The notes below the pieces were generated by a model. The model saw only the letters and a program-made list of their open reading frames with translations, did not search any database and was not told where the DNA came from. From assembly GCA_038205015.1 (NCBI GenBank), contig JBBRCK010000003.1:2527-66526 (forward strand): a stretch of DNA of 64,000 nt, written 5' to 3'. Positions 4,937-36,385 of this stretch are shown in pieces. The first letter of the stretch is position 1. Every line of letters starts with the position of its first letter. The position numbers were made by a program, and so were the translations under genes. The DNA is from Candidatus Levyibacteriota bacterium. Its GTDB lineage: Bacteria > Patescibacteriota > Microgenomatia > Levybacterales > UBA12049.

Positions 4937-4945
4937 TTTTTCAAG

Positions 4946-5030
4946 CGGAGGAGGTGAGATTTGAACTCACGATCCCTTGCGGGATGGCGGTTTAGTAAAC
5001 CGCTGCACTAGGCCACTATGCGACTCCTCC
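4946..5030 (-). tRNA. Type II (long variable arm) tRNA, Ser-like (G73 discriminator); anticodon loop reads UUACUAA giving nominal anticodon ACU, which is atypical
   Basis: Manual cloverleaf on minus strand: acceptor GGAGGAG/CTCCTCC, D-arm GCA..TGC, anticodon stem GCGGT/ACCGC, variable hairpin ATCCC-GCAA-GGGAT, T-arm GTGAG-TTCAAAT-CTCAC; no encoded CCA. Confidence 0.65.
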
Positions 5031-5660
5031 GGGTATATTTATTATTTTATCAAACTGCTCATAAATTCCAATCACTTTTAGTTGTATTTTATAGTCAGAA
5101 TATCTTATTGTACATGTTCCCATATAATCTTTTCTATATTTTTTGCCCCTTGGTATCGTAATGGTAGGTTTTATAAATTGAGATGTGGGAATTTTTAATA
5201 AATTACTCCAATATTTACTTATTTCATTAAAATTTTGAGTGGAATGAATTTGGAGTTTTACTCGAAATTTTGCTTCATTTAGCGGAAAGCTTATGCGAAG
5301 CAGTCTTATAAACAATTGTAATAGTAAAGGATCGGAGTTTGTCATATCAAGTTTGTTAGTAGAGGGATATTTTGAACCTTCACACCAATAAATAATAGAG
5401 ACAAGTATTTTTGCGGTAGTTTTATCAAAAATTTTAAAGTTTTTGATTATATCTTTCTCTGATGTTTTTATATCGTTTCTTCTTCTCTCATATGTTTTTA
5501 ATAAAGTGTCCCAACGTGTTGAGGAATTATCGTGCTTGCACCAATTACGAATGGTGGTTGCCGGTATTCCTGTTATTTCCTGCAGCTTTGTAAAAGAATA
5601 ATGGTATTTTGTGCGTAGGTTTTGTGCTTTTTCTAAGTCTTTGTCTTGATATTTTCTCAT
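5016..5660 (-). CDS. HTH-domain protein with C-terminal LAGLIDADG-like motif (ILVSIIYWCEGSK); putative homing-endonuclease-like / tRNA-locus-associated protein; paralog of 33841..34533
   Basis: N-terminal HTH-like TKLQEITGIPATTIRNW; shares blocks with paralog (YWxEG, NxDP, KFRVKLQIHS/IKVELHLYS, ISKYWSNLLKIP/IKFWEKELGIP, GTC); start 3 nt after tRNA-Ser 3' end, stop TAG inside downstream tRNA D-loop. Confidence 0.55.
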   Translation of the reverse strand: MRKYQDKDLEKAQNLRTKYHYSFTKLQEITGIPATTIRNWCKHDNSSTRWDTLLKTYERRRNDIKTSEKDIIKNFKIFDKTTAKILVSIIYWCEGSKYPSTNKLDMTNSDPLLLQLFIRLLRISFPLNEAKFRVKLQIHSTQNFNEISKYWSNLLKIPTSQFIKPTITIPRGKKYRKDYMGTCTIRYSDYKIQLKVIGIYEQFDKIINIPGGVA

Positions 5661-5662
5661 GG

Positions 5663-5750
5663 TGGCGGAGGGTACAGGATTCGAACCTGTGGACGGCTAT
5701 TCACCGTCACGGCTTAGCAAGCCGCTCTATTACCACTCTAGCAACCCTCC
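5663..5750 (-). tRNA. tRNA-Ser (anticodon GCU), CCA encoded
   Basis: Minus-strand cloverleaf GGAGGGT...ACCCTCC-G-CCA, anticodon stem GCGGC/GCCGT loop TTGCTAA, long variable arm GACGG-TGAATA-GCCGTC, T-arm ACAGG-TTCGAAT-CCTGT. Confidence 0.85.
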
Positions 5751-8642: not shown

Positions 8643-8677
8643 ATAAAAAACCCCAACGAATACGTTAGGGTTTTTTT
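8643..8677 (-). terminator. Rho-independent terminator immediately 3' of tmRNA (hairpin CCCTAACG-TATT-CGTTGGGG followed by T-run on minus strand); A-run on other side makes it potentially bidirectional
   Basis: Plus strand aaaaaaccccaacgaatacgttagggttttttt. Confidence 0.55.
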
Positions 8678-8678
8678 G

Positions 8679-9038
8679 TGGAGATGTCGAGCTATGAACT
8701 CGAGTCCAAGAAAACATTTTAAAAACGTCTACAAGCTTATTCTACTTTTAAGTGTCGTTCTACTCTTTTCCAATAGACGGGAATAAATAAAACCTAGATT
8801 ATAAATTCGATAAGGACCTAATCGGCTTCCTTATTAATTTCTCAACTGTATTTATGCTCATATAGTCCCATTGAGAAAAGACATTATGAACAGCTCAACC
8901 TATTTAAGCAAATGCGTAAAGAGGTTGTGCGCTGGAACGTGAAGTTCTAGCATTTAATTTTTGACTAAGTTAACGGCGTTTAGTCATTGCCGGCTTGCAT
9001 TTTTTAAAGTGCGAATCTTGTCGATGCAATGCATCCCC
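8679..9038 (-). ncRNA. ssrA: tmRNA (SsrA), about 360 nt, tag peptide ending ...AQPLYAFA-stop
   Basis: Minus strand 5' GGGGATGCATTGCATCGACAAGA (tmRNA-like 5' end). 3' end GGAC-TCGAG-TTCATAG-CTCGA-CATCTCCA (T-arm plus acceptor). Acceptor helix GGGGATG/CATCTCC with G3-U70 wobble (Ala identity). Internal frame ...GCA CAA CCT CTT TAC GCA TTT GCT TAA (stop at plus 8904-8906). Directly downstream of smpB. Confidence 0.8.
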
Positions 9039-9092: not shown

Positions 9093-9524
9093 TTAGGACA
9101 ATTCCTGTTCAATTCTTCTATTAAGATCTCGTTTTTTAATCGATTCTTTTTTTTCGTATTTTTTCTTACCTTTTCCAAGCGCAACCTCAAGCTTAATAAA
9201 GCCGTGTTTTAAGTATAAAGATACCGGTACCAAAGTTAAATTAGAGCCTTCAGTTTTTGATTTTAAAGAAATAATTTCCTGTTTATGTAAGAGAAGTTTT
9301 CTCGTTCTTCTATTGTCGAATCCTTCAATTTGTCCTGGTTGATAAGGGAAGATTTTAGCATTAACCAAATAAGCTTCACTTCCGACAATTCTAATAAAAG
9401 AACCGGTTAAATCTGCCTTGCCAAGTCTTACCGATTTTACTTCGTGGCCATAAAGATTAATTCCTGCCTCAAACTTGTCTGAGAGCTGGTAATTAAAAAA
9501 GGCTTTTTTATTGGTAATTTTCAT
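9093..9524 (-). CDS. smpB: SsrA-binding protein SmpB
   Basis: Conserved SmpB blocks: GHEVKSVRLGKADLTGSFIRI, NRRTRKLLLHKQEI, GSNLTLVPVSLYLKHGFIKLEVALGKGKKKYEKK. Confidence 0.9.
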   Translation of the reverse strand: MKITNKKAFFNYQLSDKFEAGINLYGHEVKSVRLGKADLTGSFIRIVGSEAYLVNAKIFPYQPGQIEGFDNRRTRKLLLHKQEIISLKSKTEGSNLTLVPVSLYLKHGFIKLEVALGKGKKKYEKKESIKKRDLNRRIEQELS

Positions 9525-9560
9525 TCCACAATAATACGTTAAAACCTAAAAAATGGCAAT

Positions 9561-11366
9561 TTATTTAAGGTTAATTTCGTATAATTTGCCCGAGGATAAC
9601 ACATACACTTTCTTATCTTTTTCAAAAACTTCAAAATCGCTGGCGTTTTTAATAAAAGAAGCTTGATATTCAGCCTTATAATTTCCGCTTTTATCCAATA
9701 CAACAATTCTTGAGTTACCGTTATCTAAAATATAAACATTGTCAAAGTCGATATTGGAATAAATTCTAGTTGGGTTTGAAAGGTTTTTACTTAAATTATT
9801 AAGAGTAAAATTGTCTTTTTTGCCCTTAGTAAATTTGATAATTGTTCCATTTGAAAAAAGCACATAGACCGAACTATCAATTGTCATTGCGCTGGCTTTG
9901 GAAAAATCGACAGAAGAGCTATCGGCTAAATAATTTGTTTTAGAAAAACCCGAGTCTGTTTGAACAAATTTTAATATTTGATTTTGTTTTTTATCTAAAA
10001 CGTAAACATTACCAAAATATAATGCTAGTCCGCCTGCGCTTTGCCAATCACTGTCATTTTTGATTAAAGTTTTTTGGTTGGAGCCGTCTTTTTTAAGAGT
10101 AAAAATATTATTGGCAGTTAATCCATAAATATTCTTATCATCCTCAAAATAATACAGAGCGCTATTTTTCGTTTCTGCCAAAAGTAGGGGGCTTAGCGAT
10201 AAATCGATTTGTTTTTGAGGTATTTTAGCAACTTGAGACGTGCTGTTTAAAGCCGTATTTACTTTAGCCAATAAATTTAAAACTTGTTTTTCCTGGGATG
10301 AATTTTTCGGGAAACTGCTTTTGCCATTTTCTAAAATTTCTTTAGCTTTGGTAAAGCTATCATTTGCTAAATTCTGATTTAAGCCAATCAAGCCTTGTCC
10401 TTCGTTATACTTTTTAGTAGCCGGAGGATAGATGCTTTCAAAAGCTGTTTTTATTCTAGTATCACCTTGTTTTTTTAGAGCAAAAAAGACACTTCCTACA
10501 AAAACTACAATAATAATTACAACAATTGTTAAAAGGACTTTTTTAGGATGGTTTAATCCCAAATTAGAAGTAAGTTTAGGGTGTGGCAATAAATTGGTAA
10601 AAGATTTTAATTTACTTATCAGGCCTACTTGTTGATTAATGGTTGATGAATAAAAAGGTTTTTTTTCTTCAACTTTTTCTTCTATTTCTTCTGTTTCTTC
10701 TGTTTTGTCATCTTCTATTGAAAAATGCAAATCCTTTTCATCTGCCGGTACTAATTCTTCAACAGGTTTTTTATAGTTAATAATAATCGAAGATGCGCCT
10801 GATTCATCTTTTTCATGTAAAAGGGGAGCGATATTTTCGGCCGCATCTTTAGGACTTAAGCCGTCAAGCATTTCAAAAAGAGTATCGGTTGAAATAACCT
10901 TGGAAAATTGCTTAGTTTGAAGTATTAAAACATCGCCGTCTTGTAAAAATCCGGAAGCAACTTTTATAGCTTTATTCTCCTGATCATTTGCTTCCAAAAG
11001 ATGTCCAAGTTTGCCTTCTCTTTTTAAGGATAACTTACCATCCCCTAAAATATAAACGTATAAAACATTGTCGATAAAAGCTCCGATCACAAAAGAACAG
11101 CTTATTTCTTGGGGGATTTTTTCGGAAGTTAGCAAAACTGCATTTTTGATTGATTCTAGATCTTTTGTTTCTAAGGTAAAAAATTCTTGTTCTAAGCTAT
11201 CAAGAATCTCTTTTCCCAAGACATTTAAGTAATCTTTTTCCTCAGATTCTTCTTGAGTTTCCAGAGAAAGCACTGCAAAGAGTTTGCCGGCATTATAGGC
11301 CTGAGCCCAACTGTAAACGTTTGGGTTGGCAACGATTTTAGCAAATGAAAGATTAGATTCAGTCAT
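9561..11366 (-). CDS. Membrane protein with N-terminal cytoplasmic degenerate PP2C-like domain, single TM helix and approx 300-aa extracytoplasmic domain
   Basis: PPM-like blocks FAVLSLETQ (in place of FAVxDGHGG), YVYILGDGKLSL (GDSR-like), DGDVLILQT (GD-LLLCSDGL-like); TM VLLTIVVIIIVVFVGSVFFAL; weak assignment. Confidence 0.45.
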   Translation of the reverse strand: MTESNLSFAKIVANPNVYSWAQAYNAGKLFAVLSLETQEESEEKDYLNVLGKEILDSLEQEFFTLETKDLESIKNAVLLTSEKIPQEISCSFVIGAFIDNVLYVYILGDGKLSLKREGKLGHLLEANDQENKAIKVASGFLQDGDVLILQTKQFSKVISTDTLFEMLDGLSPKDAAENIAPLLHEKDESGASSIIINYKKPVEELVPADEKDLHFSIEDDKTEETEEIEEKVEEKKPFYSSTINQQVGLISKLKSFTNLLPHPKLTSNLGLNHPKKVLLTIVVIIIVVFVGSVFFALKKQGDTRIKTAFESIYPPATKKYNEGQGLIGLNQNLANDSFTKAKEILENGKSSFPKNSSQEKQVLNLLAKVNTALNSTSQVAKIPQKQIDLSLSPLLLAETKNSALYYFEDDKNIYGLTANNIFTLKKDGSNQKTLIKNDSDWQSAGGLALYFGNVYVLDKKQNQILKFVQTDSGFSKTNYLADSSSVDFSKASAMTIDSSVYVLFSNGTIIKFTKGKKDNFTLNNLSKNLSNPTRIYSNIDFDNVYILDNGNSRIVVLDKSGNYKAEYQASFIKNASDFEVFEKDKKVYVLSSGKLYEINLK

Positions 11367-29205: not shown

Positions 29206-29214
29206 TTGATTAAA

Positions 29215-29346
29215 AGTTAAATATAGGTAATCTTGGTGTAAATCCAGGGCTGTGCCGCAACTGTTAAAGTCAGAAAACTATATTTAATTTAAATGCCCGA
29301 GCAGGACACTATCATATCCTTCTCGGAATAAGAGAAGGATTTTTTT
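29215..29346 (+). promoter_or_regulatory. Cobalamin (B12) riboswitch with intrinsic terminator expression platform, upstream of DUF4430-membrane-PduO operon
   Basis: AGGUAAUCUUGGUGUAAAUCC, GCUGUGCCGCAACUGU, AGUCAGAAAAC match Cbl riboswitch core/B12 box; terminator CCTTCTC-GGAATAA-GAGAAGG + T7 at 29318-29346. Confidence 0.6.
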
Positions 29347-33772: not shown

Positions 33773-33801
33773 TTGACAAACCCCGCCAAAATTTGTACTA
33801 T
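33773..33801 (+). promoter_or_regulatory. Sigma70-type promoter TTGACA-17-TACTAT for ORF 33841
   Basis: ttgacaaaccccgccaaaatttgtactat. Confidence 0.4.
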
Positions 33802-33840
33802 TGAAATATATCCTTATAATATTAATTTGGGTGTTCGGTT

Positions 33841-34533
33841 ATGGCAAGAGTTATTGATAGACAAAAAGCAATTGAGTTAAGAAAGAAAGGTCAAACTTAC
33901 AGCGAAATAAGGCATAAGCTGAATATTTCTAAAAGCACGCTTTCTGATTGGTTATCAAAATTTCCGCTAACTGCAGAACAGTTAATTAAGCTTGAAAAGA
34001 GTAGAAAACGAAATAACTTTTTGGGCATAGAAAAAATTAGATTAACAAAACAAAGGAAAAGAGAAAATCGAATAAATACTATTTATGAAATAGAAAAAAA
34101 ACGTTGGCGGTCTTTAAGTATTAAAGAACTTGAGTTGGCGGGCCTTTTCCTTTATTGGGGAGAAGGGAGGAAAAACCTAAAAAGCGCCTTGGCAATTAAT
34201 AATACAGATCCACAAGTGGTTAAATTTGCCTTACGCTGGATGACAGAAGCATTAAAAATTTCCAAAAACAGAATTAAAGTAGAATTGCATCTTTATTCGG
34301 ATATGAATATATTAAGCGAGATAAAATTTTGGGAAAAAGAGCTTGGAATTCCAAAGTTTCAATTTTATAAGCCTTACATAAAAATAAATACTAAAGCCGC
34401 AGTTGACCATAAGGGGTTTGGGCATGGCACATGTGGGTTGATCGTAAATGATGTTAGGCTAAAAGAAAAAGTTATGATGAGTATTAAGGCAATTTCCAAT
34501 CGATGTTCTACGAAAATTGAAGCTATGGTATAA
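33841..34533 (+). CDS. HTH-domain protein with LAGLIDADG-like motif (ELAGLFLYWGEGRK); paralog of 5016..5660; stop 12 nt before tRNA-Ile
   Basis: HTH GQTYSEIRHKLNISKSTLSDWL; conserved blocks shared with paralog (see 5016..5660). Confidence 0.55.
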   Translation: MARVIDRQKAIELRKKGQTYSEIRHKLNISKSTLSDWLSKFPLTAEQLIKLEKSRKRNNFLGIEKIRLTKQRKRENRINTIYEIEKKRWRSLSIKELELAGLFLYWGEGRKNLKSALAINNTDPQVVKFALRWMTEALKISKNRIKVELHLYSDMNILSEIKFWEKELGIPKFQFYKPYIKINTKAAVDHKGFGHGTCGLIVNDVRLKEKVMMSIKAISNRCSTKIEAMV

Positions 34534-34545
34534 TTATCTTTACTT

Positions 34546-34617
34546 GCGCCTGTAGTTCATCGGTAGAACAATTGTCTTATAAACAATAGGTGTTTGGTTC
34601 GACTCCAAGCAGGCGCA
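34546..34617 (+). tRNA. tRNA-Ile (anticodon UAU)
   Basis: Acceptor GCGCCTG/CAGGCGC, D GTTC..GAAC, anticodon stem ATTGT/ACAAT loop CTTATAA, T-arm TTTGG-TTCGACT-CCAAG, discriminator A. Confidence 0.75.
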
Positions 34618-34638
34618 CAGCGTCTTAATTTTTTTGCT

Positions 34639-35499
34639 TTAAAGTTCGGTTAAAACTGAAGAATCTTTGCCGCGTTCTGGCACATACTGGAGATATCTTT
34701 CGGTTGTTGAAAGTCTTTTATGCCCTAAAACCTTAGATAGGGAAACTAGTGACACCCCATGTTTTAAGTGATGAGCAACGAAAGTATGTCTTAAATCATT
34801 TACCTTGGCATCTTTAATTTCTGCTAATCTAAAATACCTTTCAACCGCGGTTCTAATGTTTCTAATTAAGAAAGGTTTTCCGGATTTAGTAATAAAAAGG
34901 TGGTCGTCAGTCACTTTTGGCCTTAAATCTGAATATCTAGCTAATGCTTCTTGAGCTCTTTTGTTTAATGGAACAATTCTGTCGGCATGTTTTTCAAAAG
35001 GTGAAATATGTAGCGTGTCTTTGGTTACGTCGGAAAGTCTAAGGTTAGCAAGCTCACCGATTCTAATACCGGTTTGCAAGAGTAATTCTATAACAGCAAA
35101 CATTCTGGCGTCGTTTCTTGCAGCATCGCGTAGCGCTCTGTATTCGGTCGGAGTAAGTATTCTAGGTGGAGCAAGCTGGTACTTAGGGTGTGAGACTAAA
35201 AGGGAAGGGTCGTCGGTAATATATTCGCTTACTTTTAAGAATCTATAAAAAGTTCTGGTGGAGTTAATTTTTCGAGAAATTGACTTTGGAGTATAGCCTT
35301 CTTTACCTAGTTTTGCCAAAAATGCTTCGATATCTTCTTTTGCAACTTCATGAACCTGATTTCTTTGAAGCTCTTCTAAAAAGGCTATTAATTGGTCAAT
35401 ATCTTTACCGTATGCAACCACAGTAGAAGCAGACTTTTTGTTGTCCTTTAAAAAGTTTTTAAATTCATTATGGGCATCTCTTAATTTGATTGGTTTCAT
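34639..35499 (-). CDS. Tyrosine recombinase XerC/XerD-like
   Basis: N-terminal SAM-like core-binding domain; C-terminal R...HxxR...Y: LRHTFVAHHLKHG...GHKRLSTTERYLQ. Confidence 0.85.
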   Translation of the reverse strand: MKPIKLRDAHNEFKNFLKDNKKSASTVVAYGKDIDQLIAFLEELQRNQVHEVAKEDIEAFLAKLGKEGYTPKSISRKINSTRTFYRFLKVSEYITDDPSLLVSHPKYQLAPPRILTPTEYRALRDAARNDARMFAVIELLLQTGIRIGELANLRLSDVTKDTLHISPFEKHADRIVPLNKRAQEALARYSDLRPKVTDDHLFITKSGKPFLIRNIRTAVERYFRLAEIKDAKVNDLRHTFVAHHLKHGVSLVSLSKVLGHKRLSTTERYLQYVPERGKDSSVLTEL

Positions 35500-36035: not shown

Positions 36036-36096
36036 TCGCAATTATTTTAACATTTACTTCAAATTGAAGCAAATTTGTGCTATAATAGTAAAACGC

Positions 36097-36385
36097 GCGG
36101 GGTAGTGTACAGTGCACGTGAGGCTTAATAAAATGGGCCGTTTTGATAGTAATATTAAAAATGAACTTGGCTATATCGGTGAACTCCTGATTAAATCAGG
36201 ACAATACCGAGGGAAGTCCTTAAAAAAGACCCCGTAGAGACTACACGCCGAGCTCCCCAATTTAATTGGGGATGATGATATAGTCCGACACTCTAAGTAA
36301 TTGGAGAAACAGTGCATAATCTCACAGGCTAGGCGCAACTCCTAGCCCCGCAACAAGTTAACCCACTTCGAAAGATGTGGGTTTT
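36097..36385 (+). ncRNA. Candidate structured ncRNA (~290 nt), identity unresolved (RNase P RNA-like GAGGGAAGUCC element but not confirmed)
   Basis: Extended -10 TGcTATAAT at 36078-36086. 5'/3' closing helix GCGGGG/CCCCGC. Several perfect hairpins: CCCCAAUU-UAAUUGGGG, GGCUAGG-CGCAACU-CCUAGCC, UCCUGAUU-AAA-UCAGGA. Intrinsic terminator at 36361-36386. No ORF of 60 aa or more. Confidence 0.35.

Follow-up and report, generated by a model that had tools for sequence, protein, structure and literature searches.

The window analysed here is a 64,000-nt stretch of AT-rich DNA (G+C content 35.5%) from a genome of the Patescibacteria, or candidate phyla radiation (CPR). It contains a 230-amino-acid open reading frame, ORF-A (33841..34533, + strand), that lies against a gene for tRNA-Ile(UAU) (34546..34618, +; ARAGORN; Rfam tRNA 66.6 bits) and belongs to a large family of proteins encoded beside tRNA genes. 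The closest homologues of ORF-A carry the name Candidatus Levyibacteriota. The spacer between the ORF-A stop codon and the tRNA gene is 12 nt, as had been read from the bare sequence in an earlier note on this DNA (the original prediction). That note also described the sigma-70-type promoter of ORF-A correctly (TTGACA-17-TACTAT, 33773..33801, +; 10/12 in a consensus scan), but the account was incomplete. The last codons of ORF-A, ATG GTA TAA, together with the next base form an extended -10 element, TGGTATAAT (34526..34534, +), 11 nt from the 5' end of the tRNA gene. Because the motif recurs, as tggtataat or tatact, in the ORF-tRNA spacers of many orthologous loci, tRNA-Ile(UAU) probably has its own promoter inside the 3' end of ORF-A. 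The -35 and -10 elements of ORF-A itself, the latter as (c)GTACyAT, are also seen upstream of its orthologues at many loci, and a terminator-like hairpin with a T-run (34611..34635, +; terminator scan) closes the ORF-tRNA unit.

Directly before the ATG of ORF-A is a leader motif, GGTGTTCGGTT (33830..33840, +), recognised from upstream flanks and from 64 family-A leaders, whose consensus, gtTc..tTATG, resembles tRNA T-loop DNA (GGTTCRA). Its GTTC lies at -8..-5 of the start (33833..33836), is often part of GGTTCRATT and is kept in Microgenomates and Parcubacteria orthologues. It is not a Shine-Dalgarno sequence, and it resembles the reverse complement of the cleavage motif of SegB, the phage endonuclease discussed at the end of this text. 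The idea that the leader is the decayed 5' half of a tRNA gene, with the ORF inserted in its T-loop, was tried and rejected, as Infernal gives no tRNA signal there and only the GTTC remains. In several other subfamilies a TATAAT precedes the ATG by 6-9 nt, a placement suggestive of leaderless mRNAs.

A second member of the family, ORF-B, is encoded at 5016..5660 (-; 214 amino acids). The claim that the two ORFs are true paralogues and not merely similar in composition is borne out by BLASTP (27% identity over 142 amino acids, E 5e-11), with all four pairs of blocks that had been listed in support of it present in the alignment: NNTDP/NSDP, IKVELHLYS/FRVKLQIHS, FWEKELGIPKFQFYKP/YWSNLLKIPTSQFIKP and GHGTCG/YMGTCT. 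Profile-profile comparison of the family-A and family-B alignments gives 100% probability, and tblastn finds no further copies in the window beyond these two. ORF-B is linked to tRNA-Ser(GCU), whose gene (5663..5750, -; ARAGORN, Rfam) ends 2 nt before the ORF-B ATG, an arrangement kept in loci L080-L095; processing of a tRNA-Ser(GCU)/ORF-B co-transcript would leave a near-leaderless mRNA. At its other end, ORF-B shares its last 15 nt with a gene for tRNA-Ser(ACU) (4945..5030, -; ARAGORN, Rfam 52.4 bits), and a promoter-like TTGGAA-16-TAAAAT with a TG lies inside the ORF-B 3' end (5071..5044; promoter scan). A tRNA-Ser(ACU), with A at position 34, is unusual for bacteria; it is seen in 14 CPR loci, including L016, L080-L083, L124, L128 and L148, where it takes the place of the tRNA-Ser(UGA) of other relatives, and the backbones of the two tRNAs are alike.

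The association with tRNA genes was followed through 79 genome loci from the family-A alignment and 80 metagenome loci from the family-B alignment, 159 in all, plus the window. Every ORF in these loci was scanned with hidden Markov models (HMMs), yielding 172 family members, 167 of which abut a tRNA gene; the other five adjoin a tRNA fragment or a contig end. A tRNA gene stands at the 3' end of 155/172 family ORFs (90%) compared with 112/917 control ORFs (12%) from the same tRNA-rich loci (Fisher p 4.5e-93). Furthermore, sequence clusters within the family sort by tRNA: Ser-GCU (81 members), Ile-UAU (72), Met-CAU (4), Gly-GCC (4) and Arg-GCG (3), while a mixed deep cluster pairs with Val-UAC, Val-GAC, Phe-GAA, Pro-UGG and Gly-GCC and Ser-GGA is represented by one case. 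Each subfamily is thus physically tied to one tRNA isoacceptor gene. The original prediction had proposed a family specific to tRNA loci from two copies; this held throughout the sample and in 22 viral contigs described below, and the isoacceptor ties go beyond it. It had also named what would speak against the idea, namely copies away from tRNA genes or membership of a known transcription factor family; the other copies adjoin tRNA genes, and the C-terminal domain fits no such family.

Both large clades show the rule in detail. In family A, ARAGORN places tRNA-Ile(UAU) just downstream of the ORF in 70/71 loci of at least 38% identity, on the same strand except in L070. Across the Ile clade as a whole, tRNA-Ile(UAU) is beside 71 of the 72 members, 70 of them on the same strand, and the exception, L019, has a tRNA-Ile fragment; the gap from stop codon to tRNA ranges from -22 to +61 nt with a median of 14. 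Family-A loci cover both Microgenomates and Parcubacteria lineages, and their flanks are otherwise unlike. About 76 of the 80 family-B loci have tRNA-Ser(GCU) abutting the ORF, and it is the nearest abutting tRNA for 73 of the 81 Ser-clade members. The order differs within this clade: in members closely related to the window copy the tRNA gene immediately precedes the ATG, and in distant ones it is at or over the stop codon. Since the tRNA can stand on either side of the ORF, the linkage survives rearrangement. In nine loci (L007, L029, L046, L047, L052, L056, L058, L059 and L062) the ORF-A homologue and the tRNA gene overlap by 10 nt, which, as read from the printed tRNA sequences rather than locus by locus, puts the stop codon at tRNA positions 8-10 (U8-A9-G10 = TAG). 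RNase P cleavage of such an overlapping co-transcript would remove the stop codon.

ORF-A consists of a helix-turn-helix (HTH) domain (residues 1-41), a 44-residue helix (45-88) and an alpha/beta C-terminal domain (about 92-230), hereafter the C-domain. The HTH is readily recognised by Pfam (HTH_23 30.1 bits, cut-off 24.6; HTH_28 28.7 bits, cut-off 25; residues 2-41), and HTH families match 42-48 of 73 members, many of them transposase-associated (HTH_23, HTH_28, HTH_SB, HTH_Tnp_1, CENP-B_N). AlphaFold2 (AF2) models the full-length protein with a mean local confidence (pLDDT) of 92.9, with the HTH at 2-38, the helix at 45-88 and a C-domain of the order a-b-a-b-a-b-b-a (a, helix; b, strand), and the C-domain alone with pLDDT 93.4 and a predicted TM-score (pTM) of 0.86. 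The linker helix is hypervariable: residues 45-92 (33973..34116) are 26-60% identical among relatives in which the HTH is 55-91% and the C-domain 50-93% identical. Across the alignments Y105, E108, G109, K111, W164 and G196 are invariant in all subfamilies and W106, N121 and D123 nearly so. The first helix of the C-domain thus ends in an invariant Glu-Gly-x-Lys, and an N-[ST]-D motif is also kept; Cys198 is invariant within clades A and B and not outside them. No match to the C-domain (the C-terminal 140 residues) was found among Pfam, NCBIfam, PHROG or PADLOC families or, by phmmer and hmmsearch, among PDB sequences, and these searches place it in no named family of regulators whose effector or oligomerisation domain is known.

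The proposal that this domain is LAGLIDADG-like was supported in part, by profile comparison and by one structural search; another structural search and the predicted topology did not support it. A diverse family profile (A6) aligned by hhalign with residues 100-146 of I-DmoI, whose sequence was verified as 1b24_A, at a probability of 68.7% and E 4.6e-5; a narrower profile gave E 0.026. The aligned region is the second LAGLIDADG motif of I-DmoI with the strand and helix that follow, and it corresponds to the first half of the C-domain. E108 falls on I-DmoI E117, a catalytic glutamate, and K111 on K120. There was no signal for I-CreI in profile comparison. In the BFVD structure database, one of the matches with the lowest root-mean-square deviation (rmsd) across 112-116 columns carries the name homing endonuclease (TMq 0.38; prob 0.84; rmsd 4.1 Å, 112 columns); others in this group are several proteins of 789-1,123 amino acids (rmsd 3.5-4.5 Å over 112-116 columns) that are suspected to carry inteins. 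Weak LAGLIDADG matches were returned for 7/73 and 2/34 members.

Several results count against this assignment and against the nuclease reading built on it. The best Pfam LAGLIDADG_3 score, 21.2-21.7 bits on a phage member, does not reach the cut-off of 22.5; no LAGLIDADG structure is in the top 50 of a Foldseek search against PDB; the matches that Foldseek does return are weakly OmpA-, MotB- and IspF-like (TM-score at most 0.41); and the AF2 topology, a-b-a-b-a-b-b-a, differs from the canonical LAGLIDADG order, a-b-b-a-b-b-a. Helix 1 of the predicted C-domain is followed by a single clear strand, and the third and fourth strands are separated by an additional helix and a long loop. ORFs of the window gave no Pfam LAGLIDADG match (_1, _2, _3 or _WhiA) at E up to 10, and no GIY-YIG domain was matched in any Pfam scan of members. 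Taken together, the profiles and models tip the balance somewhat towards the C-domain being a very divergent, single-motif derivative of the LAGLIDADG scaffold.

Comparisons of close relatives reveal that ORF and tRNA can differ strongly between near-identical flanks. Between L004 and L011 the flanking ATPase and Xer proteins are 97% identical and the flanking DNA about 93-95%, yet the ORF-A proteins are 62-64% identical and the tRNA-Ile(UAU) genes 64%. The divergent block runs from within the ORF, after the HTH, to a shared 15-nt remnant of a tRNA 3' end, CCCAAGCAGACGCAC. L001 and L012 show the same pattern (flanks 93-94%, ORF 54%, tRNA 64%). Judging by these alignments, a divergent allele has replaced the segment that reaches from the middle of the ORF to the end of the tRNA in very close relatives. 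In the clade of L004 and L011, the identities of the two flanks are correlated (rho 0.79), and those of the tRNA follow neither the flanks (0.06) nor the ORF (0.12).

Presence and absence are also seen. In the window, two divergent tRNA-Met genes are separated by a 60-nt spacer (36036..36095) that side-by-side sequences identify as an empty site: a Met-linked paralogue, ORF-C, recognised by HMM matches and clustering, occupies this position in L005, L011, L039 and L069 and is missing from it in the window, L002, L008 and L009. Presence/absence or allele replacement at a conserved site, by which a homing gene may be recognised, is found with ORF-C and in the pairs L004/L011 and L001/L012. In addition, remnants of tRNA 3' tails lie 5-16 nt downstream of tRNA-Ile in eight loci compared with 0.2 expected from shuffles, those inspected in full (L004, L006 and L009) starting in the T-loop, and L022 has a remnant of a tRNA 5' half between ORF and tRNA.

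The tRNA-Met cluster has other notable features. The tRNA-Met(CAU)-type gene at 36096..36354 (+), which ARAGORN misses, is split by a group I intron (36116..36307; Rfam Intron_gpI 90 bits), and the exons correspond to the 70-nt tRNA of L002, which has no intron. Besides the window, L005, L011, L039, L061 and L069 contain the intron; the gene is intact (70-77 nt, ARAGORN) in L002 and at the matching position of L008 and L009, so the intron is polymorphic. In L011 a 471-residue ORF (9275..10690, -) lies against the intron-containing tRNA-Met; by its look it is a putative large serine recombinase, and would be another mobile-element signature at the tRNA cluster.

Relatives of the family also occur in viral sequence. 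A scan of IMG/VR recovered 22 distant relatives (20-30% identity; same superfamily, hhalign 100%), with many of the contigs measuring 100-527 kb. In 20 of the 22 loci no more than about 150 nt separate the homologue from a tRNA gene. Dense arrays, with 10 to 22 tRNA genes packed into some 8.6 kb, are seen in six loci; in L161, L165 and L173 a gap of 5-20 nt lies between the end of the ORF and a following tRNA-Val (UAC or GAC). The flanks, mostly unannotated ORFs plus an intein with a LAGLIDADG_3 domain and a methionyl-tRNA synthetase, fit huge phages. The intein is carried by an ORF of L179 (6618..8639, +) beside the 22-tRNA array and contains a bona fide LAGLIDADG_3 domain (50.7 bits), and canonical and divergent LAGLIDADG-type genes therefore coexist on this contig. 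A separate observation concerns the tRNA itself. A second type of tRNA-Ile(UAU), found in L001, L002, L006 and L011 among the Levyibacteria relatives, has the D-arm GTAACTCAG..AGAGTG; this D-arm and a CTTATAA anticodon-loop signature recur on 34 IMG/VR contigs (L182-L215; 66-80% identity), a possible hint that phage-type tRNA-Ile alleles circulate into Levyibacteria hosts. None of the 34 contigs carries the family, and with a best identity of 80% no donor is identified among them.

These features suggest, with about even chances, that the family consists of free-standing homing-endonuclease-like genes that target tRNA genes, by analogy with SegB of phage T4; the ORF-A product is accordingly described here as a predicted nuclease. 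ORF-A would be expressed from its own promoter and the tRNA from the -10 within its last codons. The HTH would tether the protein at or near a tRNA gene, where the C-domain, probably as a dimer, would cut alleles with no cassette or with a different one at a near-palindromic sequence of a tRNA arm, the T-arm being the favoured candidate. Recombinational repair would then copy the ORF and the adjacent, presumably resistant, tRNA gene into the cut chromosome. Loss of the cassette would be prevented by the essential tRNA beside it, and this would account for the long-term vertical maintenance of the cassette in many CPR lineages. In this scheme the DNA cleavage, its target, the dimerisation and the immunity of the resident tRNA are what we infer.

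Further observations weigh against such a selfish nuclease. Nearly all family ORFs are intact. Divergence of the ORF keeps pace with that of its flanks in Ser-clade pairs and in Parcubacteria pairs of the Ile clade, as in a vertically inherited gene, and the ATPase (about 35 loci) and Xer (about 27 loci) genes are syntenic with ORF-A and its tRNA, a conservation compatible with both domestication and selfishness. Searches of GenBank phages and PLSDB plasmids returned no relatives. The tRNA remnants adjoin a tyrosine recombinase gene, and tyrosine recombinases also use sites from the tRNA T-loop to the 3' end. Finally, the correlation between C-domain identity and tRNA type is weak and not significant (Spearman 0.21, p 0.07). 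Co-evolution of the C-domain with the tRNA sequence type was set aside on this result, and a simple pairing of a nuclease with an immune target is therefore not supported.

The vertical signal would be at home with a different function, that of a domesticated, WhiA-like DNA-binding regulator of the neighbouring tRNA gene, with the HTH on the promoter region, the tRNA promoter in the ORF 3' end included, the C-domain used for dimerisation or sensing, and no cutting. An HTH followed by a small C-terminal domain is the standard layout of one-component regulators, which are typically encoded beside their targets, and here the -10 of the tRNA overlaps the end of the ORF. The promoter and leader, including the T-loop-like GTTC, are strongly conserved; the ORFs are well conserved as well as intact, many pairs being vertically inherited within long-lived synteny; and WhiA is a precedent for a transcription factor derived from a LAGLIDADG protein. 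Regulation nevertheless leaves unexplained the phage arrays of 10 to 22 tRNA genes, the swaps of ORF plus tRNA between 97%-identical flanks and the presence/absence polymorphism. In L076 ftsH directly precedes tRNA-Ile(UAU) and there is no family ORF, and thus the ORF is not required by the tRNA. The glutamate aligned with a catalytic residue of I-DmoI is invariant in more than 130 aligned members, whereas WhiA has lost its catalytic residues. Moreover, we know of no bacterium with isoacceptor-specific regulators of tRNA genes. A regulatory role, the main rival, is accordingly judged unlikely.

The tight match between subfamily and isoacceptor could alternatively reflect an action on RNA, in which the protein binds or acts on the co-produced neighbouring tRNA or pre-tRNA as a chaperone, processing or modification enzyme or sensor. 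ORF and tRNA lie within a few nucleotides of each other and often overlap, so that co-transcripts must exist. Some of the partner tRNAs are unusual (Ile-UAU, with Ser-ACU nearby), some LAGLIDADG proteins are RNA maturases, and the b-a-b-a-b-b core resembles IF3-C and Alba, a likeness that Foldseek did not recover. However, the N-terminal HTH is of a DNA-binding, transposase-like type, most subfamilies have ordinary isoacceptors (Gly-GCC, Val-UAC, Phe-GAA, Arg-GCG), and library searches gave no match to a tRNA-modifying or RNA-binding family. The tRNA also varies widely beside similar proteins: the Spearman coefficient for the identities of ORF and tRNA is 0.31 when all pairs are compared and 0.12 for the close set. 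A function on the RNA side is improbable on this evidence. Only a little less doubtful is a tRNA-partnered system, in which the neighbouring tRNA or its gene would be the specificity determinant of each paralogue, either as a ligand or guide or as the gene that the protein replaces or amplifies. As a guide, the tRNA made from a promoter in the ORF 3' end would recall the guide RNAs that overlap TnpB and IscB genes; if instead the family were an engine of replacement and amplification, CPR bacteria and giant phages could use it to diversify their tRNAs under tRNA-cleaving toxins or defences.

The genes on either side of the unit are as the original prediction had them: a TrwB/HerA-type coupling ATPase of 983 amino acids upstream of ORF-A and, convergent with tRNA-Ile(UAU), a Xer-type tyrosine recombinase of 286 amino acids (34639..35499, -; Pfam Phage_integrase with a SAM-like N-terminal domain). 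With a recombinase so close, the ORF might serve a tyrosine-recombinase integration module, with the 3' end of the tRNA as attachment site, as an accessory gene for a regulator or directionality factor, the linkage then being a by-product of integration. The Xer-type gene follows tRNA-Ile in the window and in Microgenomates relatives, and between them lie tRNA 3'-end remnants and variable small genes, a pattern that is reportedly typical of att scars. Yet Xer is absent from most family loci, including those of the Parcubacteria, of the Ser, Gly and Val clades and of the phage arrays; as a neighbour it is a lineage-specific synteny of Microgenomates relatives and no part of the family signature. 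The ORF is on the 5' side of the tRNA, outside the variable segment; the Xer gene is syntenic and highly conserved, resembles a host gene and is 74-86% identical where the ORF is 53-65%; and partial data point away from an enrichment of tyrosine recombinases beside family members. An accessory role of this kind is therefore very improbable.

The interval between tRNA-Ile and Xer deserves mention in its own right. In several relatives (L004 1623..1716; L069 5779..6510; L005, L002, L006 and L009) it contains one or two tRNA 3'-end remnants, and five relatives have 300-700 nt of unrelated small-gene DNA there, differing from genome to genome; the window has neither remnants nor insert. With a tyrosine recombinase next to it, the interval has the appearance of a hot spot for integration. 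Elsewhere in the window, the Rfam scan found an AdoCbl-II (cobalamin) riboswitch (29209..29288, +; 59.7 bits) and a tmRNA gene (8676..9038, -; 108.6 bits), both unrelated to the tRNA-linked family.

The family is large. In a database clustered at 90% identity, ORF-A has more than 1,388 homologues and ORF-B more than 175, and an exhaustive HMMER search with a C-domain profile returned 4,323 clusters (50% identity) at E <=1e-3 and 2,548 at E <=1e-10, nearly all of about 220 amino acids. The few long members were considered as fusions to a known enzyme, an idea that was dropped since they are tandem fusions of two family units. Members are named "hypothetical", "HTH domain-containing" or "transposase-like" in databases, and full-text literature searches did not find a description of the family; the superfamily thus appears to be previously undescribed. 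More than 4,000 clusters without a Pfam or NCBIfam model amount to a large annotation blind spot, and tRNA adjacency with one subfamily per isoacceptor is among the strictest genomic rules for any uncharacterised family. If the proteins are endonucleases, they would form a new homing family, related to LAGLIDADG proteins but very divergent, whose targets are tRNA genes of cellular genomes, a chromosomal counterpart of SegB; their specificities for different tRNA sequences would be of interest to genome engineering, and they would explain the exchange of tRNA genes between CPR bacteria and huge phages. If they have been domesticated, bacteria would have in them their first factors specific for the tRNA genes of single isoacceptors. 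In both cases the family provides a testable handle on the turnover of CPR tRNA genes and an annotation marker for CPR.

Four known systems invite comparison. WhiA comprises two degenerate LAGLIDADG domains followed by a C-terminal HTH, has lost its catalytic acids and is encoded by a single-copy housekeeping gene. It shares with the present family the combination of an HTH with a LAGLIDADG-type scaffold and provides a precedent for domestication, but the family has one such domain after an N-terminal HTH, an invariant acidic residue and several paralogues per genome beside tRNA genes; LAGLIDADG_WhiA was not matched in Pfam scans of the window ORFs and members. Islands inserted by tRNA-targeted integrases also use tRNA genes as landing sites, and the tRNA 3'-end repeats downstream in eight relatives and the tyrosine recombinase next door recall them. 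The unit of the family, in contrast, is an ORF with a whole tRNA, the ORF being on the 5' side, and most loci have no integrase; in the window, no direct repeat of the tRNA 3' end (att pair) flanks ORF-A as in an integrase island, and no convincing direct or inverted repeats bound it. With I-DmoI and LAGLIDADG_3 proteins the family shares a first helix ending in Glu-Gly-x-Lys, then a strand, an N-[ST]-D turn and an amphipathic helix. Unlike them, it adds an N-terminal HTH and a 44-residue helix and is not found within an intron or intein, and the helix-packing glycines are not conserved in its Ser clade.

SegB of the T-even phages belongs to the free-standing homing endonucleases of the GIY-YIG type. 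Its gene is found alongside phage tRNA genes, and the enzyme cleaves within these at RAWTSGAAC, which is a T-loop sequence when read as its reverse complement, thereby promoting the inheritance and amplification of tRNA+segB units without isotype preference (PMC13096335). The family described here lacks a GIY-YIG domain and has an HTH and a LAGLIDADG-like domain instead; it is found mostly in CPR chromosomes, its cleavage of DNA is a prediction, and each of its subfamilies keeps to one isoacceptor. The likeness is accordingly one of genomic behaviour: both are free-standing, wedged among tRNA genes, including phage arrays, and statistically co-localised with them, and the inspected junction remnants of the family start in the T-loop, which the SegB motif resembles.

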